Shown piece after piece: positions 48,311 through 63,970 of a stretch of 64,000 nt of DNA (positions are counted from its first letter, which is position 1; every line of letters starts with the position of its first letter). The notes beneath the pieces were generated by a model that was not told the DNA's origin, searched no databases, and saw only the letters and a list, made by a program, of their open reading frames with translations. The position numbers and the translations under genes were made by a program. This DNA comes from a phage: the sequence record PV467749.1; one strand, 5' to 3'.

Positions 48311-48855
48311 AGTAGTTCCTTATACATTGCGTGTATTCTTTCAATATCTCTGTAATAACTCATATCTTCACGAGTATCATTAAAAATAGTAACACTGAAT
48401 ATATTAATACTAATTGAACTATTATCAATGTACTCTTTTAATTTATTATAAAGATATATACATTTAGTAGATGTATCATCCCACATAAGACTATTTTGAA
48501 AGATGTTTTCTTCTGTATTAGGATATAAGTACTGGTCAATATTGTACTCCAATGAACTATCACAGTTTTTATATACAGAAATAGATGGAAAATTTTTATT
48601 GTACATAATACTAATAACATTATCATTGTATGTAGAAATTAAACTGGTACTGGATGCTACACTTTCATCATAATTCAGTACTGAAATTCTTGCATTATCT
48701 GTGCAGTACAGATGTTTCATTCCACCTCTCATAGCCATAGTAAGAAATTTATCAGTGAACCATATTCCTTTTGTTTTCAGTATAGTTTCATGCATAAGAT
48801 AAGTTTCAATGAAGATTTTTACACGCTCAAATGCTAAGTCAAGTTCATTGTACAT
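48301..48855 (-). CDS. FQ-motif family protein
   Basis: 184 aa from ATG 48855 (AAGGA RBS); NTEENIFQNSLMWD. Confidence 0.7.
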   Translation of the reverse strand: MYNELDLAFERVKIFIETYLMHETILKTKGIWFTDKFLTMAMRGGMKHLYCTDNARISVLNYDESVASSTSLISTYNDNVISIMYNKNFPSISVYKNCDSSLEYNIDQYLYPNTEENIFQNSLMWDDTSTKCIYLYNKLKEYIDNSSISINIFSVTIFNDTREDMSYYRDIERIHAMYKELLCY

Positions 48856-49036
48856 AACGGATATCCTTCTGTAAAGAATCAATATATTCTTTAACAACTT
48901 GTTCCTGATACTGTGTGCCCAAATACATCAGTACTTTTAACTCTTTGAATTCAGTACTATATGAGTCGGTTTGCATCATTTTAGAAGAATATATATTGAA
49001 TAGTTTGGCAATATCATCTTGGTCTATTATTTTCAT
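48845..49036 (-). CDS. LGT-Q motif small protein (family C)
   Basis: 63 aa; MKIIDQDDIAKLF...LMYLGTQYQEQVVKEYIDSL. Confidence 0.6.
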   Translation of the reverse strand: MKIIDQDDIAKLFNIYSSKMMQTDSYSTEFKELKVLMYLGTQYQEQVVKEYIDSLQKDIRYVQ

Positions 49037-49241
49037 ATATTCTCTTCTGGATTAGTTCCTGTAAGTGCTGAATATAACCCTTCATTGCAACATCCTGTTT
49101 GTTAGAGCCAACGAAGAACAATAGCTTAAAGTCATGGTAATCCATTTTTGGTTTAGTAGTGAACCATATGTCCCACACTGCCCTCACAGTTCTCATGTAT
49201 TCAATTCGATTAAATGTTTTTGAATACTTCATCGAAATCAA
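49014..49241 (-). CDS. LGT-Q motif small protein (family C, divergent)
   Basis: 75 aa; LLFFVGSNKQDVAMKGYIQHL. Confidence 0.55.
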   Translation of the reverse strand: MISMKYSKTFNRIEYMRTVRAVWDIWFTTKPKMDYHDFKLLFFVGSNKQDVAMKGYIQHLQELIQKRIYENNRPR

Positions 49242-49743
49242 CCTTTAATAAATTGATATTTAAATTACTGTTAAATGCCATCTGCAATTCCATATAGAAC
49301 TGAATAATAGCATAGTCAGGATCAGTACAAGATAGTTGAAAGCACTGTTCTTCAAATGAATTGTAATTGTACTTAGGAATATTAATAGTACGATATAACT
49401 CTGGATAACCCCATATCATAGTGTACACGTCAATTTCAGTACACTTTTTCTTAAAAGTCATCTGTCGAATAGTTTCAGATCTGGATTCAAGGTATACAAC
49501 ATTCTTATGAACGGCTGAACCAATTGAAAGCAATGATGTATCAATGACGTGTTTCTCACGTATCTCACACTTCTGGAATGCACCATTCCCTTGTAGAAGT
49601 TTATGGAAATCGTACTTCTCACTAATAACTGTACTAGGATCAATTAATCCAGTACTGCATTTTTTCAGTACTGGTACGATAGTGCGAATTTTTTTTGATA
49701 AATCTTGTAATGCATCATAATCATTAATGTTAATTTTTCTCAA
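49210..49743 (-). CDS. FQ-motif family protein
   Basis: 177 aa; NSFEEQCFQLSCTD. Confidence 0.7.
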   Translation of the reverse strand: MRKININDYDALQDLSKKIRTIVPVLKKCSTGLIDPSTVISEKYDFHKLLQGNGAFQKCEIREKHVIDTSLLSIGSAVHKNVVYLESRSETIRQMTFKKKCTEIDVYTMIWGYPELYRTINIPKYNYNSFEEQCFQLSCTDPDYAIIQFYMELQMAFNSNLNINLLKVDFDEVFKNI

Positions 49744-50185
49744 AGGATGCCTCTTCTATAGTAACGAAATCAACTAACCTATCCAGATTTTCAGTGTCAA
49801 GATAAAATACATCCAGTACTGACTTCTGATATAGTACACTAAATGTACATAGATTGTCAAGTGTTCCTTCATTATAAACAGTACTTCCCTGGAAGTACCC
49901 TTCTTCTGTACTCAGAGATAAAATATCAGAAATTTTAAAAGATTCTTCATTCTCATGACGCTCTATCGTAACTTCATCATATTTTCTGTTCAATGAAATA
50001 TAATCGTATGCTAACTCAATTAGACTATAATTATCCGCATTAGTATCAAATAAAGAATCAATTGTAATCTTCGTGCCATTAGAAACTTCTCTTCGTTCAT
50101 CATCTACGTATTCAGGATTTTCTTTGAAGAACTTAACAACTTTTAGAATATCATTTGCTTTCTTGATTGCACTTTCGTAACTCAT
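49730..50185 (-). CDS. FQ-motif family protein
   Basis: 151 aa; LSTEEGYFQGSTVY (EEGYFQGS encoded at 49883-49906); FYLDTENL. Confidence 0.7.
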   Translation of the reverse strand: MSYESAIKKANDILKVVKFFKENPEYVDDERREVSNGTKITIDSLFDTNADNYSLIELAYDYISLNRKYDEVTIERHENEESFKISDILSLSTEEGYFQGSTVYNEGTLDNLCTFSVLYQKSVLDVFYLDTENLDRLVDFVTIEEASFEKN

Positions 50186-50624
50186 TTTTTCTGGACTCCA
50201 TATATATTACCTGATTTAGTTCATATACATAATCTAAATCAATGAATATAGAATTATTAAAGTTCTCTTGCAGGAATGCATTAAAAACTACTAAAGCTCT
50301 TAACGCCCCATTTGGGTATATAGTACTGTACTGGAAGTAAGCATCTTCTGAATTTAAAAATAGTACTTCTTCTTCTGTGAATTCAAAATATTTTCCACCT
50401 TCCTCTATATAATAGAAAGTTCCAGAATCCCATACGAAGTACTTGAATTCCAAATCATAATCATGGGACTCGTACTTATATTCATTACCTAATCCTAGAA
50501 TATCTGTACCAACACTTATAGTACTAATATATGCCCCTTTATAGTCTAAGTACTTTACATTATTTTGAAAGAACTTTACTATATTAACTAATTCCTCAGC
50601 GTGCTTAAGATCACTTTCGTACAT
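50151..50624 (-). CDS. FQ-motif family protein
   Basis: 157 aa; LNSEDAYFQYSTIY; IFIDLDYV. Confidence 0.7.
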   Translation of the reverse strand: MYESDLKHAEELVNIVKFFQNNVKYLDYKGAYISTISVGTDILGLGNEYKYESHDYDLEFKYFVWDSGTFYYIEEGGKYFEFTEEEVLFLNSEDAYFQYSTIYPNGALRALVVFNAFLQENFNNSIFIDLDYVYELNQVIYMESRKNELRKCNQESK

Positions 50625-50938
50625 TATATTTCAATCTCTATATATTTTTGGGTAATTAAGTAATCCCAGTAGTACTTCACATGTTTTTGTATCTCAAGTA
50701 AAGCATAAAAATTAATTCTCTTATCCCATACAAGTGATTCCTGAAAAATAAATGATTCATGATCATCTCTGTAATCACATTCAAGGAAGTCAGGAAGATA
50801 ATCACAATCGTGAAGATATTCAATCATTAAAGATTCATTACATCTTCTAACGGCAAGGTGCTGGAAATTATCATGATCGAAGAAATACATTAAACTAATT
50901 GTACCTGGAATGTACTGAATACTGTATAATAATTTCAT
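50624..50938 (-). CDS. FQ-motif family protein (short form)
   Basis: 104 aa; DDHESFIFQESLVWDKR. Confidence 0.7.
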   Translation of the reverse strand: MKLLYSIQYIPGTISLMYFFDHDNFQHLAVRRCNESLMIEYLHDCDYLPDFLECDYRDDHESFIFQESLVWDKRINFYALLEIQKHVKYYWDYLITQKYIEIEI

Positions 50939-51378
50939 CGTTTACCCTTATGTTCGGCACGTACATATTCATAATCCAAATAAAACCTTGTACTATCAAT
51001 ACTTTTAAAGTACCACATAATAACTAAAGTATCTAGTACTTCATCATCATACAAAGTACTATTCTGAAAGTAATACTCTTCACTATCCCACGGACCTTTC
51101 AGTACTTCAAAGTTCAATTTTAAAGGTCTGCTGCGATTATAAAAACGGATTTCACCACCATAAGCATAACTGATAAATTCTGCATCTGGATTGTATTGTG
51201 AAAAATCTGCGGGACTTTTGGAATTCAGCCCAAGAATAACTGTAGTTGTGGTAAAATCACTATCCTTGTAGTAGTTACCATTCTCGGCTTTGTATACTTC
51301 TTCGAACTTCCCAGCCTTAATATCTTCAATATATGCCTGTAGTTCTTTTGCTTTATCAAGAGCACTTTGTAATGACAT
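50935..51378 (-). CDS. FQ-motif family protein (GPW subgroup)
   Basis: 147 aa; MSLQSALDKAKEL...GPWDSEEYYFQNSTLY...FYLDYEYV. Confidence 0.75.
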   Translation of the reverse strand: MSLQSALDKAKELQAYIEDIKAGKFEEVYKAENGNYYKDSDFTTTTVILGLNSKSPADFSQYNPDAEFISYAYGGEIRFYNRSRPLKLNFEVLKGPWDSEEYYFQNSTLYDDEVLDTLVIMWYFKSIDSTRFYLDYEYVRAEHKGKR

Positions 51379-51844
51379 TATCTTCCCCTACAGTATTCTC
51401 TACGTATTCATAATCGAAATAGAAACTATCAGAACCAATACTTTTAAAGTACCACATAATTACAATAACATCTAATTCTTCTTCATTGTACACAGTACTG
51501 TTCTGGAAGTAATATTCTTCACTATCCCACGGACCTTCTAGTACTGAATACGGAATGATTGTGTCATAATCATCGTAATCAGGGCTGTAAATTATAATAT
51601 CTTCATCTCTACAATAACTAATGTACTGATTGTACATATGATATTCACAGTCATCAGTATCACCCGTATCAGTGTGTAGTACTAACGTTTCTGCATGTAT
51701 CTCTGACTCATCATAATCGTCGCGGTCTTTTACAAAAAATTCAGTATCAGATGTTTTATACACACCAGGCACTGAACCTTCTTGTACCATAATCATGTAC
51801 TCATGAATCTTCTTTGCTTCTTTCAATGCACTTTCTAATGACAT
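51356..51844 (-). CDS. FQ-motif family protein (GPW subgroup)
   Basis: 162 aa; MSLESALKEAKKI...GPWDSEEYYFQNSTVY...FYFDYEYV. Confidence 0.75.
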   Translation of the reverse strand: MSLESALKEAKKIHEYMIMVQEGSVPGVYKTSDTEFFVKDRDDYDESEIHAETLVLHTDTGDTDDCEYHMYNQYISYCRDEDIIIYSPDYDDYDTIIPYSVLEGPWDSEEYYFQNSTVYNEEELDVIVIMWYFKSIGSDSFYFDYEYVENTVGEDNVITKCS

Positions 51845-51846
51845 TA

Positions 51847-52287
51847 CTAATCCCCTGTACTTAAATATTCACATGCTCCCCAGTCAAGGAAGAAGGGTTC
51901 AAAATTCAATTCCTTAAAGTACCACAAAACAACCAAGGAATCAAGCATTTCTTGGTTAAAAATAAGACTCTGTTGGAAGTAATACTCTTCAGTACCCCAC
52001 GGTCCATCAAGTACCCCGAAGTCAACAGGTGTATTTGATGTGTCAAAAGTAATCTTAGTACCTGGAATATATACAAAAAAACTAGTATATTGACTACATG
52101 AAGAGTACTGTATAGTATTGTCTTTATCATGGCCCATAAGTAAAATATCATCAGAGTATGTCTTTATACCTGATAGATAATACTCATTACCAAATGCACT
52201 TACTTTATCACCATAGAAACCACTTTTTATGTTATCGTGGAAGTGATGTATTTTGTGTGCCAGTTTAAGTGCACTTGCTAAACTCAT
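51847..52287 (-). CDS. FQ-motif family protein (GPW subgroup)
   Basis: 146 aa; MSLASALKLAHKI...GPWGTEEYYFQQSLIF...FFLDWG. Confidence 0.75.
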   Translation of the reverse strand: MSLASALKLAHKIHHFHDNIKSGFYGDKVSAFGNEYYLSGIKTYSDDILLMGHDKDNTIQYSSCSQYTSFFVYIPGTKITFDTSNTPVDFGVLDGPWGTEEYYFQQSLIFNQEMLDSLVVLWYFKELNFEPFFLDWGACEYLSTGD

Positions 52288-52754
52288 ATATCCTCTTTAA
52301 TAACTCGTAGTAGATCCAAGTCCAGATAGAAGCTAGGACAATCGGTATTATTAAAGTACCACAGAATGACAAGCTTGTCAAGCACATATTCCTCGTAGAT
52401 AGTATTCTGCTGGAAGTAGAACTCTTCACTTCCCCAGTCATTATCCAGTACTGAATACGGAAGATGTTTCTCTGCTGCACCAGTTTTAATGTCAGTATCT
52501 TGTATTAAAATATCAGCATCACGACAGAAGTACATGTAATTATCTTCCAGATTAACAACACACCCATTGAGTGTTGTTTCAGAAGAATCTAAGTTTTCTT
52601 CATACATGTGAATGTACTCACTACTGTCATCGTATATCATTCGACAATAAGCTTTACCTTCCTTGAATAGATACCCATTGAGACGATTGAGTACTATTTC
52701 CTTTTTACATAAATCAATTAACTTAGCAATTTCTAATGCTCTTGCAAAACTCAT
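52284..52754 (-). CDS. FQ-motif family protein (GPW subgroup)
   Basis: 156 aa; MSFARALEIAKLI...NDWGSEEFYFQQNTIY...FYLDLDLL. Confidence 0.75.
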   Translation of the reverse strand: MSFARALEIAKLIDLCKKEIVLNRLNGYLFKEGKAYCRMIYDDSSEYIHMYEENLDSSETTLNGCVVNLEDNYMYFCRDADILIQDTDIKTGAAEKHLPYSVLDNDWGSEEFYFQQNTIYEEYVLDKLVILWYFNNTDCPSFYLDLDLLRVIKEDI

Positions 52755-52755
52755 A

Positions 52756-52941
52756 TCAACTCCTGTGTTGTGTCTTGATATAATCTCGGTAAACCATGTG
52801 AATATTAGCTATATACAATTCACTAATATCATATGTACCGAAGTACATGTCATTCCTAATGCTGTTGTTATGTCTAATATCAATTACGAATCGTCGAAGT
52901 ATTGTATTCATGAATGATTCCATTTGTTCTTTTTTATTCAT
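52756..52941 (-). CDS. small hypothetical protein (possibly a divergent family C member)
   Basis: 61 aa; fills the gap exactly, with an ATGA overlap upstream. Confidence 0.5.
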   Translation of the reverse strand: MNKKEQMESFMNTILRRFVIDIRHNNSIRNDMYFGTYDISELYIANIHMVYRDYIKTQHRS

Positions 52942-53282
52942 AGCTTAAAACGATACCTATCTTTGGAATCAGTCTCTATACAGATTCTTCTATATTCTTT
53001 CATCTTCTGTTGGAGTTCAATAACTTCCTCTAGTGTACACAAGTACTTCTTGTCAAATATTAATGACTCTTGAAATATTTCAGCCTCACCCTGTACAGTT
53101 GTATAGTCTTTCATATTTTCTACAACTGTTCCTTTGGACTGATAATCAATTAAGCTAAAGTAAGAACCATTAAATTTAATGTACTGATCCATTTTGTGTT
53201 CATAATCACCTTTGTTAAGATTGCAATACACTTCCAGTGAAGTACTAATCTTAGGTATAAACATAGAAAAATCATATGTCAT
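52938..53282 (-). CDS. FQ-motif family protein (short form)
   Basis: 114 aa; CNLNKGDYEH...VQGEAEIFQESLIFDKKYLCTLEEV. Confidence 0.75.
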   Translation of the reverse strand: MTYDFSMFIPKISTSLEVYCNLNKGDYEHKMDQYIKFNGSYFSLIDYQSKGTVVENMKDYTTVQGEAEIFQESLIFDKKYLCTLEEVIELQQKMKEYRRICIETDSKDRYRFKL

Positions 53283-53638
53283 TATGTAATTCCTATATTG
53301 AATTTGTATTCTTGATTAATACTTACATTGGATGTATTCAAAGCAGCATACTCTTTCATTTCATTTTGTATTGTAATAACTTCTTCAAATGTACACAAGT
53401 ACTTCTTATCAAATACTAATGCAGCTTGGAATAGTTCAGCGGCATCCATTACTGTATAATCCGGCATATCTTGATGTGGATACTGTAATGAATCGTAATC
53501 AATAAATGTAAATTTACCCTGAGTGTAATGAATATACTCATTTGCACTGTGCATTAAATCACCTTTGTTTAAATTACAAAAGTACTGAAAACTGTTCTTA
53601 AAAGAATGTACTGATATTACAAAATCAAATTCCATCAC
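53282..53638 (-). CDS. FQ-motif family protein (short form)
   Basis: 118 aa; CNLNKGDLMH...VMDAAELFQAALVFDKKYLCTFEEV. Confidence 0.75.
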   Translation of the reverse strand: MMEFDFVISVHSFKNSFQYFCNLNKGDLMHSANEYIHYTQGKFTFIDYDSLQYPHQDMPDYTVMDAAELFQAALVFDKKYLCTFEEVITIQNEMKEYAALNTSNVSINQEYKFNIGIT

Positions 53639-54012
53639 TCTTCCCCTAGATTGAAATGATTACTAAAATTAGTTTCACCAGTTTTACACCATTTATCTAT
53701 ACATTCCCTGTGAATGCATTTAATTCTACGCTGGATTTCAACAATCTCTTCTAATGTACAGATGTACTTCTTGTCAAATACTAATGACTCCTGAAATAGT
53801 GCAGCATCATCCATTAAGGTATAGTCCAGCATATCGGTTGCTTTACAACTAAATCCAGTACCAAGATCCATTAAATAAAATTGTGAATTCCAGAACTTTA
53901 TAACCTTGCCCCTTGTGTAGTTTAAATCACCTTTGTACAAATTACAACACGTAATCAACTCACCCGTGTACATCCATGTCCCTATACAAAATTCATTATA
54001 TTTTATTTCCAT
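53635..54012 (-). CDS. FQ-motif family protein (short form)
   Basis: Track start is TTG 54048; ATG 54012 gives 125 aa, collinear with its two neighbours; LMDDAALFQESLVFDKKYICTLEEI. Confidence 0.7.
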   Translation of the reverse strand: MEIKYNEFCIGTWMYTGELITCCNLYKGDLNYTRGKVIKFWNSQFYLMDLGTGFSCKATDMLDYTLMDDAALFQESLVFDKKYICTLEEIVEIQRRIKCIHRECIDKWCKTGETNFSNHFNLGEE

Positions 54013-54210
54013 AATAATCTCTACTGTAATTAATAAGGTAAACTCCAATATAAGGAGAACGTTTGCGGGGGCGGGGTATTTTTTGTTTCAGGAAACATGA
54101 ACTGTACTCTGTGAACACATTTTAAAACTTTATATTAAACATATACCTTAACATGTTTTTCAGCGAAAATTTTTTTGACCCCCCCAGCGGCCTGTGAAAA
54201 CGAAACGTCT

Positions 54211-54426
54211 CTATTTATTCAGCCTAGAAATCTTGATTTCTTCAATCCTTTTCATTGCACAAAGCCTTCGACTCGTCTTCTCGTATATATTCAATACTCG
54301 TTGTACTGCATTATCTGCATCTGCAATCTGAACCAAATATGTATCCTTCAAAATCGAATCCATCATGTATTCAAAACCTTTCACACTATAGCAATATACC
54401 ACTTCCGGCTCTTCAAACGTAATCAT
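54211..54426 (-). CDS. small hypothetical protein
   Basis: 71-aa ORF. Confidence 0.5.
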   Translation of the reverse strand: MITFEEPEVVYCYSVKGFEYMMDSILKDTYLVQIADADNAVQRVLNIYEKTSRRLCAMKRIEEIKISRLNK

Positions 54427-54616
54427 AATTCCAATCCCCTATCCCATCTAACCTTCTAAGATATCTTGCGTAAATTATTTCGAAATATCTGTGCAACGAA
54501 ATTACGGATTGCTCATAATCATCATTCCTGTACATTGTGCATGTAAGAAAATCATTTAAACCGTAATCTAAACTGCACTTGAACTTCTCCTTTGCAACAT
54601 CTCTAAAATTATCCAT
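54413..54616 (-). CDS. small hypothetical protein
   Basis: 67-aa ORF. Confidence 0.5.
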   Translation of the reverse strand: MDNFRDVAKEKFKCSLDYGLNDFLTCTMYRNDDYEQSVISLHRYFEIIYARYLRRLDGIGDWNYDYV

Positions 54617-54770
54617 AATATGTCCTCTGCACAGCGTAGGTGTACTGTGAACTCAGCACCGTTAATAGGTAATCTATGTTGTAAGCACGATTTCCTCGTT
54701 GACTAGCACGGCTAGAATAAAGAATATTATCCACATATGTATCGAACTGTTCTTCAAATAACTCTTTCAT
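54609..54770 (-). CDS. possible small protein (53 aa), below the ORF-track cutoff
   Basis: MKELFEEQFDTYVDNILYSS...; ATGGATAA overlap with the next start; AAGGGTG upstream. Confidence 0.4.
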   Translation of the reverse strand: MKELFEEQFDTYVDNILYSSRASQRGNRAYNIDYLLTVLSSQYTYAVQRTYYG

Positions 54771-54779
54771 CAGCACCCT

Positions 54780-55334
54780 TTAGCACCCTTTAACAACTTT
54801 TGAAATGTAATCTTCTAATGCACCAATGTTCTTTGTATTCGTTCGAACTAAAAGATAACTTAAATCCTCGAACTCCTGAACATAATGCTTAACAGCGTAC
54901 ATGCATCGTAATTCAAAATCTGTATGAACCGTTTTGTACTGAAATAACATCTCTTCTGAAGCCTCTAAAAGCTCTGTGGCTTGTTCTGTACTGAACTTAA
55001 AGGGATTCTGTACTCCTGAACTAAAACACTTTTGTTCGTTCGTCTGGACACCCTGTGATAGATATAATCCTGTGCTACCATCTTGTGTTGATATCGAATT
55101 GAAACCATTACTTGCAACCATTAAATCTGAACTCAATACAAATAATAATTTATCTTCCTTATGAATTAATAAATCTGACTTCAGGGATTTTATTCCTGTA
55201 CTGGTTATATCACCTATACTAAGATTGTCACTGAACTTCTCAGCGTTGTTCGCAATGCTCTGGACAAGATTTTTTAATCTCTTAATGGCACTTCTGTCTT
55301 TTTCTAATGTATCTAATAAACTCATTGAACTCAT
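54780..55334 (-). CDS. FQ-motif family protein
   Basis: 184 aa from ATG 55334 (AAGGAAAG RBS); MSSMSLLDTLEKD...EASEEMLFQYKTVH. Confidence 0.7.
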   Translation of the reverse strand: MSSMSLLDTLEKDRSAIKRLKNLVQSIANNAEKFSDNLSIGDITSTGIKSLKSDLLIHKEDKLLFVLSSDLMVASNGFNSISTQDGSTGLYLSQGVQTNEQKCFSSGVQNPFKFSTEQATELLEASEEMLFQYKTVHTDFELRCMYAVKHYVQEFEDLSYLLVRTNTKNIGALEDYISKVVKGC

Positions 55335-55344
55335 TGTACTTTCC

Positions 55345-55689
55345 TTACATATTTGTACCGAACAAAACGGAACTTTGAATGCCATTAATCGACACTTCAT
55401 GTACATATATATTTTGTCTGAATACCTGAAGCAATTGAACTAAACTCTGTTGCATAATAATATGCATCGCTAAATTATCAAAGGCCGTTTCGTATTGGAA
55501 TCGTGCAGCTTCATCTTCTATGAAATTCGGAACTTGGACTGGATTTTCAAAATTTGTCCTTGTACTGAACTGTACATCATTGTCCTGTACCTTAATACCA
55601 TATGAATTATCATTGTTATCAACTACATCAAATTCAATTAAACTACCATCTTTACTGACGTTTACTATATAAACTGAAAATCTACTCAT
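55345..55689 (-). CDS. FQ-motif family protein (short form)
   Basis: 114 aa; IEDEAARFQYETAFD. Confidence 0.65.
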   Translation of the reverse strand: MSRFSVYIVNVSKDGSLIEFDVVDNNDNSYGIKVQDNDVQFSTRTNFENPVQVPNFIEDEAARFQYETAFDNLAMHIIMQQSLVQLLQVFRQNIYVHEVSINGIQSSVLFGTNM

Positions 55690-56413: not shown

Positions 56414-57022
56414 TTATATATTCAACCCTTTAACAATGGAAATAAATTCTTTGTATACATTTTCAGGTAAAGCTCTACTACCATAAAGAACACTAAATTC
56501 AGGTAACATATCCGAAATCTCTTTCGCTAAATTTATTTCATCCCTGAACATTTGCACAGGCATGATATCCTGTACCAATGATAACTGAAAGAAAAATGAT
56601 TCAATATCTTCATGCACCTCTGAATTTAAATAAATCTCTTCTGGAAACTGGGCTGTACTGTAATAATAAAATACGTCAATTCTTTTTTCATTATTTTGTA
56701 CAAGAGGTAAATTTCTTTCGTCTCTCTTATTAATATTTGTTTTCCATGACTCAATGTTATTCGGAACCCAAAACTCATAAGGTGTCTTCTCTCCTGAAAT
56801 ATTATCCAGCTTCAATCCATAATATTCACTTTCGCCGTACTTTTGCTTCAAAACAATACCTGTACTACTAATGTTTACAATGTACGTATCAACAATCCCT
56901 TCTGTGGTAAAAGGAATATTTAACTCTGAACCTTCAGGGTACTTAGCATTGAATGCATCTAATGCTTTACTTAGCACTGGAATTGCACTTGTACTGTACT
57001 TCATTAATTGGTCTATGTTCAT
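56414..57022 (-). CDS. FQ-motif family protein
   Basis: 202 aa; EDIESFFFQLSLVQD. Confidence 0.7.
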   Translation of the reverse strand: MNIDQLMKYSTSAIPVLSKALDAFNAKYPEGSELNIPFTTEGIVDTYIVNISSTGIVLKQKYGESEYYGLKLDNISGEKTPYEFWVPNNIESWKTNINKRDERNLPLVQNNEKRIDVFYYYSTAQFPEEIYLNSEVHEDIESFFFQLSLVQDIMPVQMFRDEINLAKEISDMLPEFSVLYGSRALPENVYKEFISIVKGLNI

Positions 57023-57567
57023 TTTAATTCCCCTGTAATCATACTGATATTTGAACGATACATATCGTACACTGTACTTTCTTTCTTGTGCACAATGAAA
57101 TCATAAAGATCAACAAATGCAGGAATAATAATCTTGAATGATTTATTTGGGTACGTCCCAAAATCAACTGTACTCAATTTTGCAACGAGCATAACAACAA
57201 AGATTTCTTCTGGACTATGCAATGTACTGTACTGAAAATATTCCTCAGCACTCATGGCACTTATTGCATTTATATCTTGTGTTTGTAATGTAATATTAAG
57301 ATATTCAAAAATAGAATAAAACTCTGATTTTGTTTGTATTTTGTATTTGTCAATTGGGGTATCTCTCATGAACCATAAACGGTCCTGACCATAAAAAGGA
57401 ATGATTGAATTTGGGGAACCCAAAAAAACTTCTTCTCTATCAATATCCTTTAACTCAATTTGCATACCGGATGAATTGGCAATAATTAATTCATTAAAAA
57501 TGTAATGAACCTTGTGTACAATCTCTTGTACTGAATTGAAATCATCTGGTATTTTAAAATTTTCCAT
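57019..57567 (-). CDS. FQ-motif family protein
   Basis: 182 aa from ATG 57567 (AAGGAG RBS); MSAEEYFQYSTLH. Confidence 0.7.
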   Translation of the reverse strand: MENFKIPDDFNSVQEIVHKVHYIFNELIIANSSGMQIELKDIDREEVFLGSPNSIIPFYGQDRLWFMRDTPIDKYKIQTKSEFYSIFEYLNITLQTQDINAISAMSAEEYFQYSTLHSPEEIFVVMLVAKLSTVDFGTYPNKSFKIIIPAFVDLYDFIVHKKESTVYDMYRSNISMITGELK

Positions 57568-57593
57568 AGGTATCTCCTTAAAAATGATTACAC

Positions 57594-57622
57594 ATTGTAC
57601 CATGCATTTGTACTCGTGTCAA
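57594..57622 (-). promoter_or_regulatory. sigma70-like promoter
   Basis: Minus strand TTGACA-N17-TACAAT with TGG upstream of the -10; directly after the terminator. Confidence 0.65.
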
Positions 57623-57623
57623 A

Positions 57624-57653
57624 CAAAAAAAGCCCATATCTTACGATACAGGC
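57624..57653 (-). terminator. intrinsic terminator
   Basis: Minus strand GCCTGTATC-GTAA-GATATGGGC followed by TTTTTTT; overlaps the stop of 57641..58138. Confidence 0.7.
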
Positions 57654-58138
57654 ATGTTTATTTGAATTTCATTGTACAAATCATCAATATATAGACATGA
57701 AAACGATAAACTTTCTTTAACTATATTGTTGTGATAAAGCATTTTAAACACTATATAGAAAAATAAATCAATATCATCATGAACTAAATTCTGCTGGAAC
57801 CACCACTCTTCTGTTAAATCTTGTGCATTAAAATCATCAGGAACTTCAATTGACGACATATCAGCATCTTCTTTGTACTCAAACCACATGTCGTCATTTG
57901 GAAAACGTTCATGCTTCTCTGGGTAACAATTGCTGGGATTAAATGCTAAAATATAAAATACCGTCGCAGAATGTTCTTTATTAAAAAATGAATTATTCCA
58001 CACCTGATACCTTTCACCAACATCAAGCTCTTTTGATACTGATGTTATTGCACATAATGTACGATATATTGTTTCTATTTTGTGAACAAATTTAAAGGCT
58101 GCATCTAAACTAAACTCTAAATCAGACATGCGGTGCAT
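57641..58138 (-). CDS. FQ-motif family protein
   Basis: 165 aa; DLTEEWWFQQNLVHD. Confidence 0.7.
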   Translation of the reverse strand: MHRMSDLEFSLDAAFKFVHKIETIYRTLCAITSVSKELDVGERYQVWNNSFFNKEHSATVFYILAFNPSNCYPEKHERFPNDDMWFEYKEDADMSSIEVPDDFNAQDLTEEWWFQQNLVHDDIDLFFYIVFKMLYHNNIVKESLSFSCLYIDDLYNEIQINMPVS

Positions 58139-58458
58139 AAAATTACCTCAACTAAAATAAGAACGGTATTGAATTCGAGGCAACCTTTGATACCTTGATT
58201 GTACATGTACTTTGCTACTACATATTTCTGTACTAAATTATAATTATTAAATTCCTCAAAATTGTAATTTAGAATGAAATTTGTACTCAAAAATAACTTA
58301 TGCATCTCTAATGCACTCTGATAATATTTGTACAACTCACTGATATCAATACTTTGTAAATCACTTTGTTCATATGTATGATAAGGAATGGCGTCAATAT
58401 CAATATTATTAAACCATTCTCTTAACTTATTAATATCAAATGTATTATTCAGCTTCAT
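58117..58458 (-). CDS. hypothetical protein (possibly a very degenerate FQ-family relative)
   Basis: 113 aa; NFEEFNNYNLVQKY is only loosely similar. Confidence 0.5.
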   Translation of the reverse strand: MKLNNTFDINKLREWFNNIDIDAIPYHTYEQSDLQSIDISELYKYYQSALEMHKLFLSTNFILNYNFEEFNNYNLVQKYVVAKYMYNQGIKGCLEFNTVLILVEVILCTACLI

Positions 58459-59023
58459 AACTCAATACCTCCATTAAGCACTCATAAACACCATCAATCG
58501 CATAAGCACAAAAACTGAAATTAATTTTGTTATTCTTGTGTAATGGACTATCGTGTACTGTACTCAACATAACACTATAAAACAAAGAACGTTCATGTGT
58601 AAATAATGATTCCTGAAAAAATGCTTCCTCTGATTTAATTTTATTATATTCAATCGATTGATCATTAGAATAAAATGAATCTTGATTTGAATTGTACCAT
58701 GTGTAATCCAAATCATTCTTTGATATAACTGGTGTTGGATTAAACTGTAAAAGACTAATAACACTACGGGCATTTGGGGTATCAGGTGTATTGAATCGTT
58801 TATCAAAATGACTCGTGCACGCAATATGTGAATCAAAATCAGATGGTTTAAACCCCATGAATGCGTTAATGATTCTTGTATATGGTTTTTTATTATGTGC
58901 TGCTTTCTGTACATTATATAAGGCTGCAACAATACAAGCTAACTTTTGTCCCATAAGGATTGCATTAGCGTAGGTGTACTGAATTTCATTGTACTCATTG
59001 CTTTCATTGTACTTCGAGATCAT
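58445..59023 (-). CDS. FQ-motif family protein
   Basis: 192 aa; IKSEEAFFQESLFT. Confidence 0.7.
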   Translation of the reverse strand: MISKYNESNEYNEIQYTYANAILMGQKLACIVAALYNVQKAAHNKKPYTRIINAFMGFKPSDFDSHIACTSHFDKRFNTPDTPNARSVISLLQFNPTPVISKNDLDYTWYNSNQDSFYSNDQSIEYNKIKSEEAFFQESLFTHERSLFYSVMLSTVHDSPLHKNNKINFSFCAYAIDGVYECLMEVLSYEAE

Positions 59024-59345
59024 GGAACAGCCTCACTTTGCCTAACTCGTCATTGGATATAAATTCGTTAACAGCTTTCTGTATATTCCTTAATAATAGC
59101 ACATCAAATCCTTTTGTGTCAAGCACACATTGCATTTGGAAGAATTCTTCTTCTGATAATGTATTAAAATCCACAAAATTGTCTAATATTACGTCATTAT
59201 CCAAATGTGCCATGTGCCATGTATTTCTTTCGGAGCGTTTAATAAAATTCCATCCATCTGGATAATCGGGTTCTAATTCTACATATATCCCCGATACTGT
59301 ATAAAGCATTTTATATATCATAACTATTGTACTCATTGCTTTCAC
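59004..59345 (-). CDS. FQ-motif family protein (short form)
   Basis: 113 aa (or 105 aa from ATG 59321, collinear with its neighbour); TLSEEEFFQMQCVLD. Confidence 0.7.
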   Translation of the reverse strand: MKAMSTIVMIYKMLYTVSGIYVELEPDYPDGWNFIKRSERNTWHMAHLDNDVILDNFVDFNTLSEEEFFQMQCVLDTKGFDVLLLRNIQKAVNEFISNDELGKVRLFHDLEVQ

Positions 59346-59653
59346 TGTACGTCGATGTCATAATACGCTCCTACCTCATAATCTTTCTTGCTTTGGAATT
59401 CATTAACGACTTTCTGTATATTTCTTAATGTTACCATGTCATGTCCGTACATGTCAACCACCAATTGCATTTGGAAAAATTCTTCTTCAGATAATGTATT
59501 AAAATCTATAAAATAATCCGTAACAACATGTTCGTCTAAATTTGCCATGTACCATTGATTGGTATCGACCTCTTTAACCAAATTCCATGCATCTGGATCG
59601 GATTCTAATTCTACATATATTAATGTTAATGTATACAGCATTTTATACTTCAT
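59342..59653 (-). CDS. FQ-motif family protein (short form)
   Basis: 103 aa; MKYKMLYTLTLIYVELE...TLSEEEFFQMQLVVD. Confidence 0.75.
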   Translation of the reverse strand: MKYKMLYTLTLIYVELESDPDAWNLVKEVDTNQWYMANLDEHVVTDYFIDFNTLSEEEFFQMQLVVDMYGHDMVTLRNIQKVVNEFQSKKDYEVGAYYDIDVQ

Positions 59654-60203
59654 AACTATATCCTTGCATTAAAAGAACATAAGCAATATCAACTAATTCT
59701 AAACGAATGAAAAATTTTAAATTATCTTTCAATAGATTCAAATGCATTATACTAAACAACATAAGATACTTCATTTGATTTGTATTGTATATTAGGGATG
59801 TCTGAAATACTTCTGCTTCATTGTAAGGATCAATAAATTTTATACCTTCTTCACTGTAATCCGTTTTGGAATTCTGATATATAAAATAATCATCACCAGC
59901 ATTGTACCACAAATAACCTTCAAAACTAGAATCAAATTCTGAATTTTCATTTCGCATTAAAGGTGATACTGAAATTGGATTTGAACCAACTGTTGCACAA
60001 ACCTCAATGTAAGCATCTTCACTTCCCTTAACTTCCTCTTTGATTTTATCATTGTACTGTCCTGCAAAACCAGCTTTTACTTCCAAATATAAACTACTCC
60101 CAACTTTATTAATTCTTAAAAGGGAACTCTGTACTGTATTCGCATTGTTCAGCACTAACGATATTGTGCAAATCTTATGTACCAATAACTCAATATCATT
60201 CAT
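59643..60203 (-). CDS. FQ-motif family protein
   Basis: 186 aa; PYNEAEVFQTSLIY. Confidence 0.7.
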   Translation of the reverse strand: MNDIELLVHKICTISLVLNNANTVQSSLLRINKVGSSLYLEVKAGFAGQYNDKIKEEVKGSEDAYIEVCATVGSNPISVSPLMRNENSEFDSSFEGYLWYNAGDDYFIYQNSKTDYSEEGIKFIDPYNEAEVFQTSLIYNTNQMKYLMLFSIMHLNLLKDNLKFFIRLELVDIAYVLLMQGYSYEV

Positions 60204-60214
60204 ATTGGTATTCC

Positions 60215-60397
60215 TTAATTTGGTGGATTTGGATGTAATAAACGATCTTGATAATTTAAATGCTCTTGTAATATTGCACTAAGATAATAACTAAAATCAT
60301 TAATTCCACCCTTTAAATGTATATTGTAATACATCTTAATGCTTGTAATCAATGAATTATTTAAATCATCAAATGTTCTTGCTTCATATGATTTCAT
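60215..60397 (-). CDS. small hypothetical protein (possibly a divergent family C member)
   Basis: 60-aa ORF. Confidence 0.5.
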   Translation of the reverse strand: MKSYEARTFDDLNNSLITSIKMYYNIHLKGGINDFSYYLSAILQEHLNYQDRLLHPNPPN

Positions 60398-60519
60398 TAA
60401 AATTCTTCCCTCAAATAACGCTTAATGGCACAATCTAAATAAAAATCATAATACATCATATCTCTATTCTTAACCCATACACAATAATCTGCATTAATAT
60501 TTCTTAATAATATATTCAT
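60397..60519 (-). CDS. possible small protein (40 aa), below the ORF-track cutoff
   Basis: MNILLRNINADYCVWVKNRDMMYYDFYLDCAIKRYLREEF; TAATG overlap with the next start. Confidence 0.35.
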   Translation of the reverse strand: MNILLRNINADYCVWVKNRDMMYYDFYLDCAIKRYLREEF

Positions 60520-60536
60520 ATTATAATCTTCACACC

Positions 60537-60947
60537 CTAATCGTGCCATTTAATAGGATACTCCGTTCCATTTATTGTATAAGATATAATCCATCCGTAA
60601 TGAATAGGATGATTTTTGTCTGAAACAGGAATAAAATATAAAGATGTACTAGGATTATAACTGAATAAATCGTTGTTACCAATTGTAAAATGTGATAACT
60701 CAATCTTCCTTGTACCTGTACTTGGACGAAGAACATTCTTAACACCGAAGACTGTACCTTGATATTTCTCGGAAAATTCAAACAATGCATCTGCAATTAA
60801 ATCACGAAACTCCGCATGTATGGTTTCAAAAAAATCTATATTACACGATGTTTTAATATCCTTGAACTCCTTATATAAAGAGCTTCTTGTATTCAAAAGA
60901 AATATTACTTTTTTAAGATCCTGAACTATTTCTGGATTCATATTCAT
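60537..60947 (-). CDS. hypothetical protein (not an FQ-family member)
   Basis: 136-aa ORF. Confidence 0.6.
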   Translation of the reverse strand: MNMNPEIVQDLKKVIFLLNTRSSLYKEFKDIKTSCNIDFFETIHAEFRDLIADALFEFSEKYQGTVFGVKNVLRPSTGTRKIELSHFTIGNNDLFSYNPSTSLYFIPVSDKNHPIHYGWIISYTINGTEYPIKWHD

Positions 60948-61188
60948 TTATCTCATTCTGTAACTTAAGCATCAAAATTTGCATATTAATTTTTTGTACA
61001 AGATGATTGAGAAATTTCTGTACTGTATCTTCTTGTTCTTTTGTACCAAGATAAAATAACATATTAAATTCAGATAATCTCAGAGCGAAATCTTCCTCTC
61101 CCCCTAGTAAACAAAAATCCCTGTACTTTGAAGCATACAAATAAGCATCTATCTTTTTATAATTCACTGTACTTCCTTTCATATGCAT
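60913..61188 (-). CDS. LGT-Q motif small protein (family C)
   Basis: 91 aa; MLFYLGTKEQEDTVQKFLNHL. Confidence 0.6.
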   Translation of the reverse strand: MHMKGSTVNYKKIDAYLYASKYRDFCLLGGEEDFALRLSEFNMLFYLGTKEQEDTVQKFLNHLVQKINMQILMLKLQNEINEYESRNSSGS

Positions 61189-61199
61189 TAGGTATCTCC

Positions 61200-61511
61200 T
61201 TATATATTGACATGTTTTGTTATCCCTGCTGTACCTTGTATTAAATTATCATACATATCGAGCATCACTTTTTGAATACTAATTAATACTGGCATCGTGC
61301 AAATATCAATGTCGTATATTAAGCTGTACTGGAATAATTCCTCTTCCTGCATTTGTACTAAATTAGGTAAAAGATAATTGTCTGCCTCTTCATCCTGGTA
61401 CTTGAAATGCATAACACCATCCTTTTTGTACAAAAGAATGTCAATATCACCTAACTCTTCTGCATAACCAAAAATACATATACTCGATGTTTTTGCTATA
61501 TTAAATTTCAT
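61200..61511 (-). CDS. FQ-motif family protein (short form)
   Basis: 103 aa; QMQEEELFQYSLIYD. Confidence 0.7.
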   Translation of the reverse strand: MKFNIAKTSSICIFGYAEELGDIDILLYKKDGVMHFKYQDEEADNYLLPNLVQMQEEELFQYSLIYDIDICTMPVLISIQKVMLDMYDNLIQGTAGITKHVNI

Positions 61512-61520
61512 ATTCTTCTC

Positions 61521-61844
61521 TTATATGTAGAATTCACATACGCGTTGAACAAAATTCTTTGGAAGATGACAATGTGCAATCATCTGCTTTTGTACTTCCT
61601 TCATGTCTTCGAATGTAAATCCTAAAGAATCATCATGTACTAACAAGTACTGAAACTCTTCTTCTTCAGAGATAGAACATAAATTCGGTACTGAAATTGT
61701 TTTTGCTTTTCTTGCACCCAATTTCCAATGAAAAGAATTATTGCATTTTCTGTACTCAAATATCTTCAACCCAGAACCTGTATTAAAATCAGCTACTACA
61801 ATGTAACATGAATTCTTACGTACAATACAATTGAACTTACGCAT
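61521..61844 (-). CDS. FQ-motif family protein (short form)
   Basis: 107 aa from ATG 61844 (GGAG RBS, TAATG overlap); SISEEEEFQYLLVHD. Confidence 0.7.
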   Translation of the reverse strand: MRKFNCIVRKNSCYIVVADFNTGSGLKIFEYRKCNNSFHWKLGARKAKTISVPNLCSISEEEEFQYLLVHDDSLGFTFEDMKEVQKQMIAHCHLPKNFVQRVCEFYI

Positions 61845-62089
61845 TATCTCCACCTCTCTCCGTCTGTACAAGAGTACTGGTACGTTGTCGTTAGGGTAGG
61901 GACCATGTTTGTAATGGGCATATTATTAACAATAACGGTAACAGGCATAAGAATCGTCTCTTCTCTACTCTGTCCTGTCCTTGTGCAATTCATCTTTTGC
62001 ATTTCATCGGACTCCATGAAATACAATACAAATGGTGCAATCCCAAGAACAATACACAAGACGATAAGGAAATTTAAAAAATTCAACAT
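61844..62089 (-). CDS. small membrane-anchored protein
   Basis: 81 aa; N-terminal TM segment FLNFLIVLCIVLGIAPFVLYF; downstream of a promoter. Confidence 0.55.
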   Translation of the reverse strand: MLNFLNFLIVLCIVLGIAPFVLYFMESDEMQKMNCTRTGQSREETILMPVTVIVNNMPITNMVPTLTTTYQYSCTDGERWR

Positions 62090-62118
62090 AATTTTTACCC
62101 CATGATTAACGTACAGGT

Positions 62119-62147
62119 ACTATATCAGTAATGAAAAGTACTGTCAA
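62119..62147 (-). promoter_or_regulatory. sigma70-like promoter with extended -10
   Basis: Minus strand TTGACA-N17-TATAGT with TGA; -35 lies in a tandem 10-mer AGTACTGTCA x2 (62137-62156). Confidence 0.6.
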
Positions 62148-62153
62148 GTACTG

Positions 62154-62369
62154 TCATTTGCATTTGGACTTTATTTGACACATCAACCCCCAAATTAAAT
62201 ATCGAACACTATCAGCTTGATAGTTTGTTCCTACTGTGTGTTTTAAGATTAACTCATCTTTCAGTACTGAACATTCTGCATTAGATATAGGAAGAGAATT
62301 AATTCTTTTAATTTCTGGTTGTAAAGTCCTGATAAGATTGGTGTAATCTTTGTATGATAATCTTTTCAT
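62154..62369 (-). CDS. LGT-Q motif small protein (family C, divergent)
   Basis: 71 aa; MKRLSYKDYTNLIR...LKHTVGTNYQADSVRYLIWGL. Confidence 0.55.
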   Translation of the reverse strand: MKRLSYKDYTNLIRTLQPEIKRINSLPISNAECSVLKDELILKHTVGTNYQADSVRYLIWGLMCQIKSKCK

Positions 62370-62372
62370 TGT

Positions 62373-62714
62373 TCAGTACTCAACGATGTGTTCTTCATAA
62401 CCATTAAACTCCGGTTTAGTTTCTTTCATTAGGACTACCATTTTATGTACTAATGGCATAGGAAATTCTAAATCCCATACTAATGATTCTTGAAAGTATT
62501 CTTCTTCAGATAAAGTACTTAAATCTTTAATATCAACGTGCTTGTATATTTTATTTTCGTAATTAAGAAATGATATATATAAATCATTAACATAAGAATC
62601 ATAAGTAATTGTGAATGGCTTACCCTTGTAGTCCATTACATCTTTACATAGACTGCATTTGATATATGTATGTTCTTCTGAACTGTATACATTGAGTTGT
62701 ATATTAGTTTTCAT
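62373..62714 (-). CDS. FQ-motif family protein (short form)
   Basis: 113 aa; TLSEEEYFQESLVWDLEFPMPLVHKM. Confidence 0.75.
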   Translation of the reverse strand: MKTNIQLNVYSSEEHTYIKCSLCKDVMDYKGKPFTITYDSYVNDLYISFLNYENKIYKHVDIKDLSTLSEEEYFQESLVWDLEFPMPLVHKMVVLMKETKPEFNGYEEHIVEY

Positions 62715-62728
62715 AGTTACCTTATATA

Positions 62729-63067
62729 TTAATACTCAATAATGTGATCTTCATAACCATTAGGTACAGGCTTAGTTTCTTTTATTAGTACTATCATCTT
62801 ATGTACTAATGGCATAGGAAACTCCAAATCCCATACTAATGATTCTTGAAAGTATTCCTCTTCAGATAAAGTACTTAAATCTTCAATGTCAATGTGTTCG
62901 TACATGTTATATTTGTAATCAGCAAAAGATATATAAAAACCTCTTGTATTATCATAAGTAAGTGCAAATGGCTTACCTTTGTAGTCCATTACAGAGTTAC
63001 ATGTATGGCATTTGATGTATGTACTTGCAAATGATTTATATACCTTGAGTTTTATATTAGTTTTCAT
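62729..63067 (-). CDS. FQ-motif family protein (short form)
   Basis: 112 aa; the closest pair in the array with 62373..62714 (long identical stretches, e.g. MDYKGKPF and LSTLSEEEYFQESLVWDLEFPMPLVHKM). Confidence 0.75.
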   Translation of the reverse strand: MKTNIKLKVYKSFASTYIKCHTCNSVMDYKGKPFALTYDNTRGFYISFADYKYNMYEHIDIEDLSTLSEEEYFQESLVWDLEFPMPLVHKMIVLIKETKPVPNGYEDHIIEY

Positions 63068-63308
63068 ATTTCTCTTTATTAGCTTGTTTAGATTGTTTGG
63101 TTTTATAGTGAATGAAATCTATTAATGTAATCAAGTACAACGTCAAATAGTACTCTTGTTGATCTGTACCTAATGATACAAAGAACTTGTGCTCATAGAT
63201 TAAAACCTGTTTCTCTTCAAATGGACATTTAATCCTCTGTATAGGCTTAAGTAAATGATAGTACTTATTAAATCTATGATACATTTCTAGTTCTGTCAGT
63301 ACTTTCAT
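63057..63308 (-). CDS. LGT-Q motif small protein (family C)
   Basis: 83 aa from ATG 63308; MKVLTELEMYHRF...FFVSLGTDQQEYYLTLYL. Confidence 0.6.
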   Translation of the reverse strand: MKVLTELEMYHRFNKYYHLLKPIQRIKCPFEEKQVLIYEHKFFVSLGTDQQEYYLTLYLITLIDFIHYKTKQSKQANKEKYEN

Positions 63309-63309
63309 A

Positions 63310-63531
63310 TTAAACATGTACTCCATTAGCTGTAGCATCACGTAAAGCTCTCAAATACTTCTGTACTGCTTGCTCTTGATGATCTGTACCTAAAAGTATA
63401 TACATCCATAATTCACTGTAATGTACATCTTGTGTATAAGGGTTGTTGTAACTTTTTGATAATATAGCATCAAATTCAGATGCATGAACCCTTGCGAACT
63501 TAAGCATATCTTGTTGTGTTATGATTCTCAT
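63310..63531 (-). CDS. LGT-Q motif small protein (family C)
   Basis: 73 aa; MRIITQQDMLKFAR...YILLGTDHQEQAVQKYLRAL. Confidence 0.65.
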   Translation of the reverse strand: MRIITQQDMLKFARVHASEFDAILSKSYNNPYTQDVHYSELWMYILLGTDHQEQAVQKYLRALRDATANGVHV

Positions 63532-63743
63532 ATCTTTTCCTGTACTATCTGCATAAGAATCTCTATGTGTGAATTAACAGTTCTCTCTTGATGCTGTGTT
63601 CCTAAGAGTGTCAGTACTATCATCTCTGAACGCAAAAGATTTTTTTCAAGTTCACTTATATCAGTTCTTGAATCAAGTGCCATATATTTGTGATTATTCT
63701 TCCTGAATAGTGCCAAGTACTCTTGATTTGATATTTCCTTCAT
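63528..63743 (-). CDS. LGT-Q motif small protein (family C)
   Basis: 71 aa; MKEISNQEYLALFR...LTLLGTQHQERTVNSHIEIL. Confidence 0.65.
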   Translation of the reverse strand: MKEISNQEYLALFRKNNHKYMALDSRTDISELEKNLLRSEMIVLTLLGTQHQERTVNSHIEILMQIVQEKI

Positions 63744-63970
63744 AGTTTATTCCTGATGCCATTTAAAAGTGCTCTAATATGCTCCTGTACGAATTTGTAC
63801 TGACTGTCTGTTCCTAGAGTGAGTAGTAATCTTAAATCTGAACTTTTGATATGATATTCTAAATCATTATTTGATTCTTGCATCAGTTTCTTAAAGGATG
63901 AGAAGTTTGCAGCCATTAGTTCAATGTATTCTGCTGTTCCTAGTGGTTTGTGTATTGGCTGTTTGTGCAT
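63740..63970 (-). CDS. LGT-Q motif small protein (family C)
   Basis: 76 aa; LLLTLGTDSQYKFVQEHIRAL. Confidence 0.65.
   Translation of the reverse strand: MHKQPIHKPLGTAEYIELMAANFSSFKKLMQESNNDLEYHIKSSDLRLLLTLGTDSQYKFVQEHIRALLNGIRNKL

Follow-up and report, generated by a model that had tools for sequence, protein, structure and literature searches.

Jumbo phages are under development for therapy, and yet over 80% of the genes they carry lack an assigned function. The question addressed here concerns a 64,000-nucleotide (nt) stretch of phage DNA (sequence record PV467749.1), referred to in its whole length as the window, in which a preliminary description made from the letters alone had noted at least eight small open reading frames (ORFs) sharing an N-terminal pattern and a C-terminal L-G-T-x-x-Q motif. 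What are these proteins, here called LGT proteins, and what would a phage gain from carrying them in such numbers? The analysis indicates that they are members of one family, that most copies of it are arranged in tandem beside the terminal repeat of the genome, and that the array may be a diversifying set of small binding proteins, expressed early and serving host takeover or counter-defence. This last reading is the one that we favour, with a likelihood somewhat short of even.

A paralogous family of small proteins

All eight ORFs were recovered on the minus strand (Table 1), in a region of ~31% G+C whose genes are all co-oriented. The window DNA is 96% identical to that of the Escherichia jumbo phages WPEC3 and CMSTMSU and ~85% identical to that of PBECO4-type Asteriusvirus phages, with "hypothetical protein" as the annotation of all genes under these matches, and its source is evidently a PBECO4/121Q-like jumbo coliphage (Asteriusvirus).

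Profile searches were run against the 446 window ORFs of at least 35 amino acids (aa). A profile built from the eight LGT members recovers just those eight; since such a self-search is circular, it was repeated leaving one member out at a time, and each omitted member then ranked eighth, right behind the other seven, with E values of 4.5e-14 to 2.6e-4 against a best non-member E of at least 0.16. In addition, all eight match a single independent PHROG model, phrog_4148 (E = 2e-22 to 8e-4). Six of them align over about 66-72 of its 74 positions (E = 3e-12 to 2e-22), while 49014..49241 and 60913..61188 match over the C-terminal half only and are rescued by the leave-one-out window profiles (values in Table 1). 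As had been proposed from the sequence, the eight ORFs are a genuine paralogous family of small coding genes. The family is not unrecognised, as had been thought, having already been clustered as phrog_4148, function unknown; that entry carries no description of function, structure or genomic context, and the array architecture, position and evolution reported here come from the present analysis.

The shared terminal motifs were borne out by a consensus drawn from 79 non-redundant members out of 156 collected. It begins with M-K-x-[LI]-[TS]-x-x-E-Y, and its C-terminal part reads E-[LI]-x-L-x-x-F-L-G-T-N-Y-Q-E-x-x-V-x-x-Y-I-x-x-L-x-x-x-I-x-x-K, the Q being conserved in 100% of members, the T in 97%, and the G and the L at profile position 62 in 91% each. 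No further complete member was found in the window, where a 32-sequence profile recovers exactly the same eight plus a ninth cut by the window edge. "Three or four" degenerate members had also been suspected, and the three ORFs named (52756..52941, 54211..54426 and 60215..60397) lack support: they gave E = 9.5, 15 and 27 with the eight-sequence profile, no match with the 32-sequence profile and no phrog_4148 match at E <= 1.

A tandem array beside the terminal repeat

The run at the window edge had been expected to continue beyond it, and it does. The ninth, edge-cut member (63940..63999) encodes NTLKRVIKLKCTNSQYTNH*, the C-terminus of the WPEC3 array member L001:32280..32531 (L001 being the fetched WPEC3 locus), and 27-28 consecutive members are found in relatives. 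WPEC3, oriented as the window is, holds 32 LGT members in the fetched locus, 27 of them in 28 consecutive gene slots (L001:31397..37806) directly past the window end point. The corresponding counts are 31 in fEgEco12, 26 in 121Q (counted within L004, the 40-kb locus fetched for it, which covers the array) and 21 in JNE01, and two metagenomic contigs carry 29 and 9 members. In fEgEco12 the array comprises g057-g084, from 21,091 to 27,280, with 4-nt ATGA overlaps at 14 of 26 internal junctions. Most LGT copies lie in one translationally coupled, operon-like tandem array of ~28 genes.

One gene within the run (23007..23258 in the fEgEco12 locus L002, corresponding to 35639..35890 in L001) is not matched by the family, scoring 2.3 bits to its profile. 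It retains the string "...LVLMTGTDKNAI..." and looks decayed because the invariant Q has been lost though L-x-T-G-T is kept; probably it is a decayed or neofunctionalised LGT member.

Along the direction of transcription the gene order is always the same: first an extended run of LGT genes only, then a long run of genes of a second family, FQ, in which a few LGT stragglers are set. In the window the order is LLLLFFLFFLF(19)LLF(18), L and F standing for the two families. The two had been described as interleaved, a term that fits the four stragglers only, because the bulk of the LGT genes forms a separate, homogeneous array upstream of the FQ array.

The position of the LGT array is best seen in fEgEco12, whose genome has direct terminal repeats of 20,993 bp, a length that both PhageTerm and restriction mapping confirmed (PMC13070987). 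Here the first array gene begins at 21,091, 98 nt from the repeat end at 20,993 and just outside the repeat, and in the other relatives examined the array begins after the homologous small-gene block. The genes of the fEgEco12 repeat are spaced apart, with eight perfect 12/12 TTGACA-16/17-TATAAT sigma70 promoters in the intergenic gaps of the 12-21 kb scanned. The first array gene is preceded by a lone 249-nt gap containing TTGACT-16-TATTAT and then a GGAG ribosome-binding site. This layout would fit a single early operon transcribed by the host RNA polymerase, the early timing being put conditionally because the promoters are consensus matches and such matches show no overall enrichment.

As a separate observation, a 28-nt hairpin, AAAGGGATTGACTCCGGTCAGTCCCTTT, occurs three times in the fEgEco12 terminal repeat (13489, 16758 and 19510). 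It includes the -35 box of a TTGACT-17-TATTAT promoter, and repeated intergenic segments of ~200 nt are found around these sites.

Divergence of the array between sister phages

Comparison of fEgEco12 with JNE01, a phage of the same genus, revealed a sharp change at the start of the array. Genes on the terminal-repeat side have a median aa identity of 98.8%, with 10 of 54 lacking a reciprocal best hit; for LGT members the median is 40% (18 of 31 without such a hit) and for FQ members 32% (24 of 37). In the DNA itself, 96.4% identity holds over a 15,260-nt block, which stops 2 nt short of the first LGT start codon (21089/21091 in the fEgEco12 locus L002 and 16153/16155 in the JNE01 locus L003), past which only short patches of 67-83% identity are shared. 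The two phages have in common the repeat, the promoter and the ribosome-binding site, and the whole LGT and FQ module behind them differs. The end of the block looks like a recombination or cassette boundary located exactly at the translation start; it would reflect either very fast divergence of the module or recombinational exchange of cassettes (or of the repeat region) at that boundary.

With 121Q the fEgEco12 array is collinear, orthologs being 47-97% identical and eight members having no reciprocal best hit. Paralogs within one genome show a median identity of ~30%. The pooled ratio of nonsynonymous to synonymous substitution rates (dN/dS) for LGT is 0.33 against 121Q and 0.46 against WPEC3, and the FQ values are similar (0.27 and 0.34, respectively). 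The LGT paralogs are ancient yet intact, and are held under purifying selection. Tandem paralogs, copy-number variation and divergence far above that of the flanking genes are all found here, as in hypervariable multigene arrays.

Fold and conserved motif

The protein encoded by 63310..63531 was modelled with AlphaFold2 from a 62-sequence family alignment, with a predicted local distance difference test score (pLDDT) of 95.1 and a predicted template modelling score (pTM) of 0.82. Its four helices span residues 6-15, 17-25, 31-46 and 52-68, and residue 2 is joined by a beta-bridge to the T of L-G-T. A model of a paralog with 20% identity, available in BFVD, superposes on it with a TM score of 0.89-0.92. 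LGT proteins are accordingly predicted to be soluble four-helix domains of ~65-90 residues.

The conserved columns fall into three groups, namely hydrophobic core positions, a capping-box pattern at the N-terminus of helix 1 ([TS]5-x-x-E8), and the helix 3-helix 4 turn, L-G-T-N-x-Q-E. Outside these columns the sequence is variable, net charge included, with isoelectric points of 4.2 to 10. Replacements between orthologs are scattered over the whole of the exposed surface; best protected are the turn and, in helix 3, the C-terminal half. Given this fold and the placing of the conserved columns at the core, the helix 1 cap and the helix 3-helix 4 turn, the L-G-T-N-x-Q-E motif would most simply be a structural clasp joining the N-terminus to the loop between helices 3 and 4.

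No match for LGT members was obtained in Pfam, NCBIfam, PADLOC or the sequences of the PDB, apart from a spurious 16-bit match of a single member to the PADLOC model of Cas11 (E = 0.0024), the other seven giving none there. Likewise, no significant fold or sequence similarity was found to solved structures of known small helical proteins with anti-defence, anti-sigma or immunity functions.

A possible role in host takeover or counter-defence

In the reading that we favour, the host RNA polymerase would transcribe the array early, from the sigma70-type promoter at its head, and each paralog would be a small protein-binding module in which a constant framework, made up of the hydrophobic core, the helix caps and the G-T-x-x-Q turn, bears a freely varying surface. 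Jointly, the paralogs would act as host-interaction factors for takeover or counter-defence. Renewal of the repertoire would come from the birth and death of genes and from swaps of the whole cassette behind the conserved promoter. This reading rests on the site of the array by the terminal repeat and a host-type promoter, the lack of any enzyme signature, the pattern of conserved scaffold and variable surface, copy-number variation, and hypervariability beside near-invariant flanks. It also draws on the literature, as counter-defence functions are enriched among fast-evolving phage accessory genes (bioRxiv 10.1101/2023.04.06.535777), and the counter-defence gene tifA of phage T4 is amplified in tandem against toxIN (PMC9391042). 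In the published particle proteome of a relative, phAPEC6, which comprises 62 proteins, none lies between gp347 and gp549, the interval expected to hold the array (PMC7247149).

Several points weigh against this proposal. Purifying selection on the array is moderate and carries no signal of positive selection, dN/dS being below 1 overall. The sharp break at the array start could stem from recombination that recently transferred the terminal-repeat region, and not from any fast evolution on the array side. Conservation of the invariant Q and the near-invariant T is higher than simple helix capping requires; the two residues could belong to a functional site common to the family, as opposed to a purely structural turn. 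Nor do promoter-like sites occur in excess (97 found in the window against 100.7 expected, and 78 against 75.8 in a second scan), the promoter at the array head being a consensus match only. Finally, virion mass spectrometry can overlook proteins of 8 kDa.

A more elaborate form of the proposal, which we consider rather unlikely, holds that the array would be an interchangeable repertoire of mini-binders with ~20-30 specificities, each directed at a different host defence or physiological target, encoded by one early operon on the first unique DNA entering the cell. Repertoires would be swapped as cassettes behind a conserved promoter, possibly together with FQ, making the array a phage counterpart of the terminal multigene families of African swine fever virus (ASFV) and poxviruses.

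What the analysis defines is a module of ~30 copies of one orphan fold in one operon, with a boundary between near-identical and almost unrelated DNA in sister phages, a pattern that is usual for host-range or counter-defence determinants. If the proteins do bind host proteins, they would provide dozens of natural, very small and well-folded inhibitor scaffolds, as well as a tractable system to learn how phages diversify a repertoire.

The FQ family and a possible partnership

FQ proteins carry the motif E-x-x-[YF]-F-Q-[SGNQ], exemplified by STEEGYFQGS in 49730..50185 and SEEEYFQES in 62729..63067. The model of the short protein 62729..63067 (pLDDT 79.5) comprises a five-stranded sheet and helices, and its most confident part is helix 69-79, formed by the motif E-E-E-Y-F-Q-E-S-L-V-W. 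The tobacco etch virus (TEV)/3C protease site, ENLYFQ↓S/G, resembles the FQ motif; cleavage at the motif is unlikely because it is predicted to be alpha-helical in the best-modelled part of the fold. The label "DUF2283" on an FQ-like match could not be upheld, its score of 13.9 bits lying below the cutoff of 23.

LGT and FQ are not one homologous family, which is ruled out by an hhalign probability of 0.2%. They are, nevertheless, adjacent and co-oriented in 7 of 7 loci examined, and FQ, like LGT, was found only in Asteriusvirus-type genomes. It could be supposed, therefore, that LGT proteins are dedicated partners of FQ proteins (as chaperones, inhibitors/antitoxins or adaptors), the two arrays forming one two-component system. 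Apart from the constant association, this would be in keeping with the joint replacement of the two families between fEgEco12 and JNE01 and with the four LGT members that sit among FQ genes, with reading frames overlapping or near-abutting. A functional pairing had indeed been suggested from the placement of LGT runs directly upstream of FQ blocks, and such placement holds for two of the four runs in the window: the other two are followed by a small membrane-protein gene (after 62154..62369) and a phrog_29252 gene (after 60913..61188). Moreover, the co-occurrence is not independent evidence because the genomes share ancestry, there is no one-to-one alternation but a pure LGT run and then a nearly pure FQ run, and copy numbers are unequal, 8 LGT against 41 FQ in the window. 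A dedicated partnership is thus unlikely.

Other tiny ORFs lie amid the FQ genes, as a triple (54609..54776, 54413..54616 and 54211..54426) and a pair (60397..60549 and 60215..60397). None of them is an LGT member. The first belongs to phrog_29794, another unknown family (E = 6e-37), and the others have no PHROG match.

Other readings of the array

The LGT copies could instead be largely dispensable products of tandem duplication that fill headful packaging capacity, as in the genome-expansion ratchet of Hua et al. (mBio 2017, PMC5646251), and have little individual function. Those authors gave one sentence to an array of over 30 genes in 121Q, read as duplication-driven genome expansion, with no gene identities, family definition, structure or functional proposal. 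Both the phage genus and the tandem-duplication idea are those of the LGT array, but because the sentence names no genes the array meant may be FQ or another one. Copy number, which is free to vary from 21 to 32, and selection that is relaxed in comparison with typical core genes (the dN/dS of 0.33-0.46 given above) are also in line with such ballast. However, pooled dN/dS is clearly below 1, and paralogs so old as to be ~30% identical retain their reading frames, fold-defining residues and translational coupling, whereas neutral copies would become pseudogenes and just one array gene looks degenerate. Dispensable ballast is, on balance, distinctly unlikely; if true, it would directly support the model in which a capsid-size ratchet drives the growth of jumbo genomes.

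Another proposal takes LGT proteins for small nucleic-acid-binding regulators, in which helix 3, the turn and helix 4 would form a helix-turn-helix (HTH) with the invariant Q opening the recognition helix. The L-G-T-x-x-Q string recalls the HTH turns of the 434 repressor (VGTTQQSIEQL) and of lambda Cro (LGVYQSAINKAI), and there are non-significant Foldseek matches to TetR-family regulators (E = 2.4-8.2) and, for one member, a sub-threshold SarA-family match of 15 bits (E = 0.02; cutoff 62.6). Set against this, the length of helices 3 and 4 (16-17 residues) and a core-packing hydrophobic periodicity all along helix 4 are read as an antiparallel hairpin within a bundle. Charge points the same way: 35% of the members are acidic, and the residues conserved in helix 4 are either hydrophobic or acidic and never basic. 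No significant structural or profile match was found to HTH proteins (Cro/cI-like, TetR N-domain). On fold, charge and the lack of any HTH match the HTH reading of the motif is rejected, and a regulatory role of this kind is highly improbable.

Equally improbable is that the coupled paralogs co-assemble into one hetero-oligomeric intracellular structure instead of acting as independent binders: ATGA-coupled translation of ~28 genes would yield roughly stoichiometric products, and the conserved polar pole (K2, E8 and G-T-N-x-Q-E) could serve as a common self-association surface, but a defined multi-subunit assembly is hard to reconcile with a copy number and membership that differ between close relatives and with the replacement of entire sets.

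Distribution and resemblance to known systems

A HMMER profile scan of 1.84 billion cluster representatives returned 58 matches, all of 52-96 aa except one 1460-aa protein that is probably spurious. In two word-indexed searches every match with a named source was an Asteriusvirus phage or an "E. coli" record, and divergent LGT representatives trace to other Asteriusvirus genomes or to unsequenced relatives of the same architecture. The searches made, in sequence and in structure, found no LGT relatives outside Asteriusvirus, and the family would seem to be restricted to these jumbo coliphages.

Many LGT members are filed under "Escherichia coli" (P0015, P0023, P0034, P0042, P0088 and others), mostly on contigs of ~345-358 kb; apparently these are Asteriusvirus genomes that went unrecognised in bacterial assemblies, as contamination or carried phage. 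Another record, P0188, comes from a contig of 3,149 bp in the European Nucleotide Archive (ENA) and is the top match of a diverse LGT profile (E = 1.2e-16). At 154 aa it is as long as two ordinary members together, and two neighbouring array genes may have been fused or read through to give it.

What was already known of the family amounts to an unannotated PHROG cluster and one passing mention of a 121Q array. Four features, namely its fold, its operon-like organisation, its placement at the edge of the terminal repeat and the sharp boundary of hypervariability, appear to be undescribed in the literature searched, in which no transcriptome or genetic study of Asteriusvirus was found. A fast-evolving multigene family near the terminus of a large virus is a known kind of system, the orphan fold being what is new here.

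Large DNA viruses offer several examples of multigene families or "genomic accordions", such as MGF110/360/505 of ASFV and host-range amplification in poxviruses. These families and T4 tifA (PMC9391042) share with LGT the tandem paralogs near a genome terminus, copy-number variation, rapid divergence and a presumed role towards the host. There is no sequence or fold relationship with any of them. In addition, the LGT copies are ancient (~30% identity) rather than products of recent amplification, and lie in one translationally coupled operon.

Phage genome ends are also known to hold early host-takeover clusters, such as gp37-60 in the terminal redundancy of SPO1 and the pre-early region of T5. 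Like the LGT array, these contain many small genes of unknown function at or by long terminal repeats, with host-type promoters. In SPO1 and T5, however, the clusters consist of unrelated genes with their own promoters, as does the Asteriusvirus repeat itself, whereas the LGT array is one family behind one head promoter. With regard to the proteins, T4 AsiA, the colicin immunity proteins Im7/Im9, helical anti-CRISPRs and Acb2 are small all-helical inhibitors. They resemble LGT proteins in being soluble, all-alpha, 60-90 aa long and devoid of catalytic motifs, and serve as leads.

Features of the window and minor observations

The coordinates of the features are given in Table 1.

Table 1. LGT genes and associated features of the window
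Feature	Position	Strand	Leave-one-out E	phrog_4148 E	Remarks
Ninth LGT member, 3' end	63940..63999	-			19 codons + stop; last 60 nt of window, continues off the edge
LGT member, 76 aa	63740..63970	-	1.6e-12	3e-12	Fourth-from-last of main array
LGT member, 71 aa	63528..63743	-	4.5e-14	1e-18	
LGT member, 73 aa	63310..63531	-	2.3e-13		Modelled protein
LGT member, 83 aa	63057..63308	-	2.6e-4	1.7e-21	Last of main array
LGT member, 71 aa	62154..62369	-	3.8e-6	9e-14	Straggler in FQ region
LGT member, 91 aa	60913..61188	-	4.3e-10	5.6e-4	Straggler
LGT member	49014..49241	-	2.2e-6	8e-4	First of straggler pair
LGT member, 63 aa	48845..49036	-	7.8e-13	1.4e-17	Second of straggler pair
Main FQ block	35331..63067	-			39/41 FQ-core profile matches in window; downstream of LGT array
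Sigma70-like promoter match	62119..62147	-			TTGACA-17-TATAGT + extended -10 TG; 11/12 consensus positions

Within the main array, 63740..63970 has an extended N-terminus and is 99% identical to its WPEC3 and fEgEco12 orthologs, and 63528..63743 overlaps the upstream gene by 4 nt (ATGA). The last array member, 63057..63308, starts at an internal ATG of a longer GTG ORF (63057..63341), the resulting start MKVLT being family-typical and, with guidance from the hidden Markov model (HMM), the same as in fEgEco12 27029..27280; it overlaps the first FQ gene (62729..63067) by 11 nt.

As for the stragglers, 62154..62369 is the fastest-diverging member, with 81-83% identity to the closest phages, and 60913..61188 carries extensions at both termini and has an AAGGAG ribosome-binding site 7 nt before its ATG. 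The ORF 49014..49241 opens with TTG and contains a family-typical ATG (MKYSK) at 49232, which is the probable start, giving 72 aa; in this protein V-G-S replaces L-G-T, and its identity to the WPEC3 and fEgEco12 orthologs is 99%. Its pair partner, 48845..49036, overlaps it by 23 nt. No DNA-level repeats of relevance were found in the region.

The promoter match at 62119..62147, the strongest of the region, lies in a 64-nt gap past the LGT member 62154..62369, and the element recurs at fEgEco12 28520..28548. Behind it, within the LGT/FQ region, is a gene for a small predicted membrane protein (61844..62089; phrog_8826, E = 8e-28). Further along, between two FQ genes, there is a terminator-like hairpin with a T run (57653..57632) and, immediately after it, a promoter match of 11/12 (57622..57594); this segment, 57594..57653, may be a transcription-unit boundary within the FQ array.

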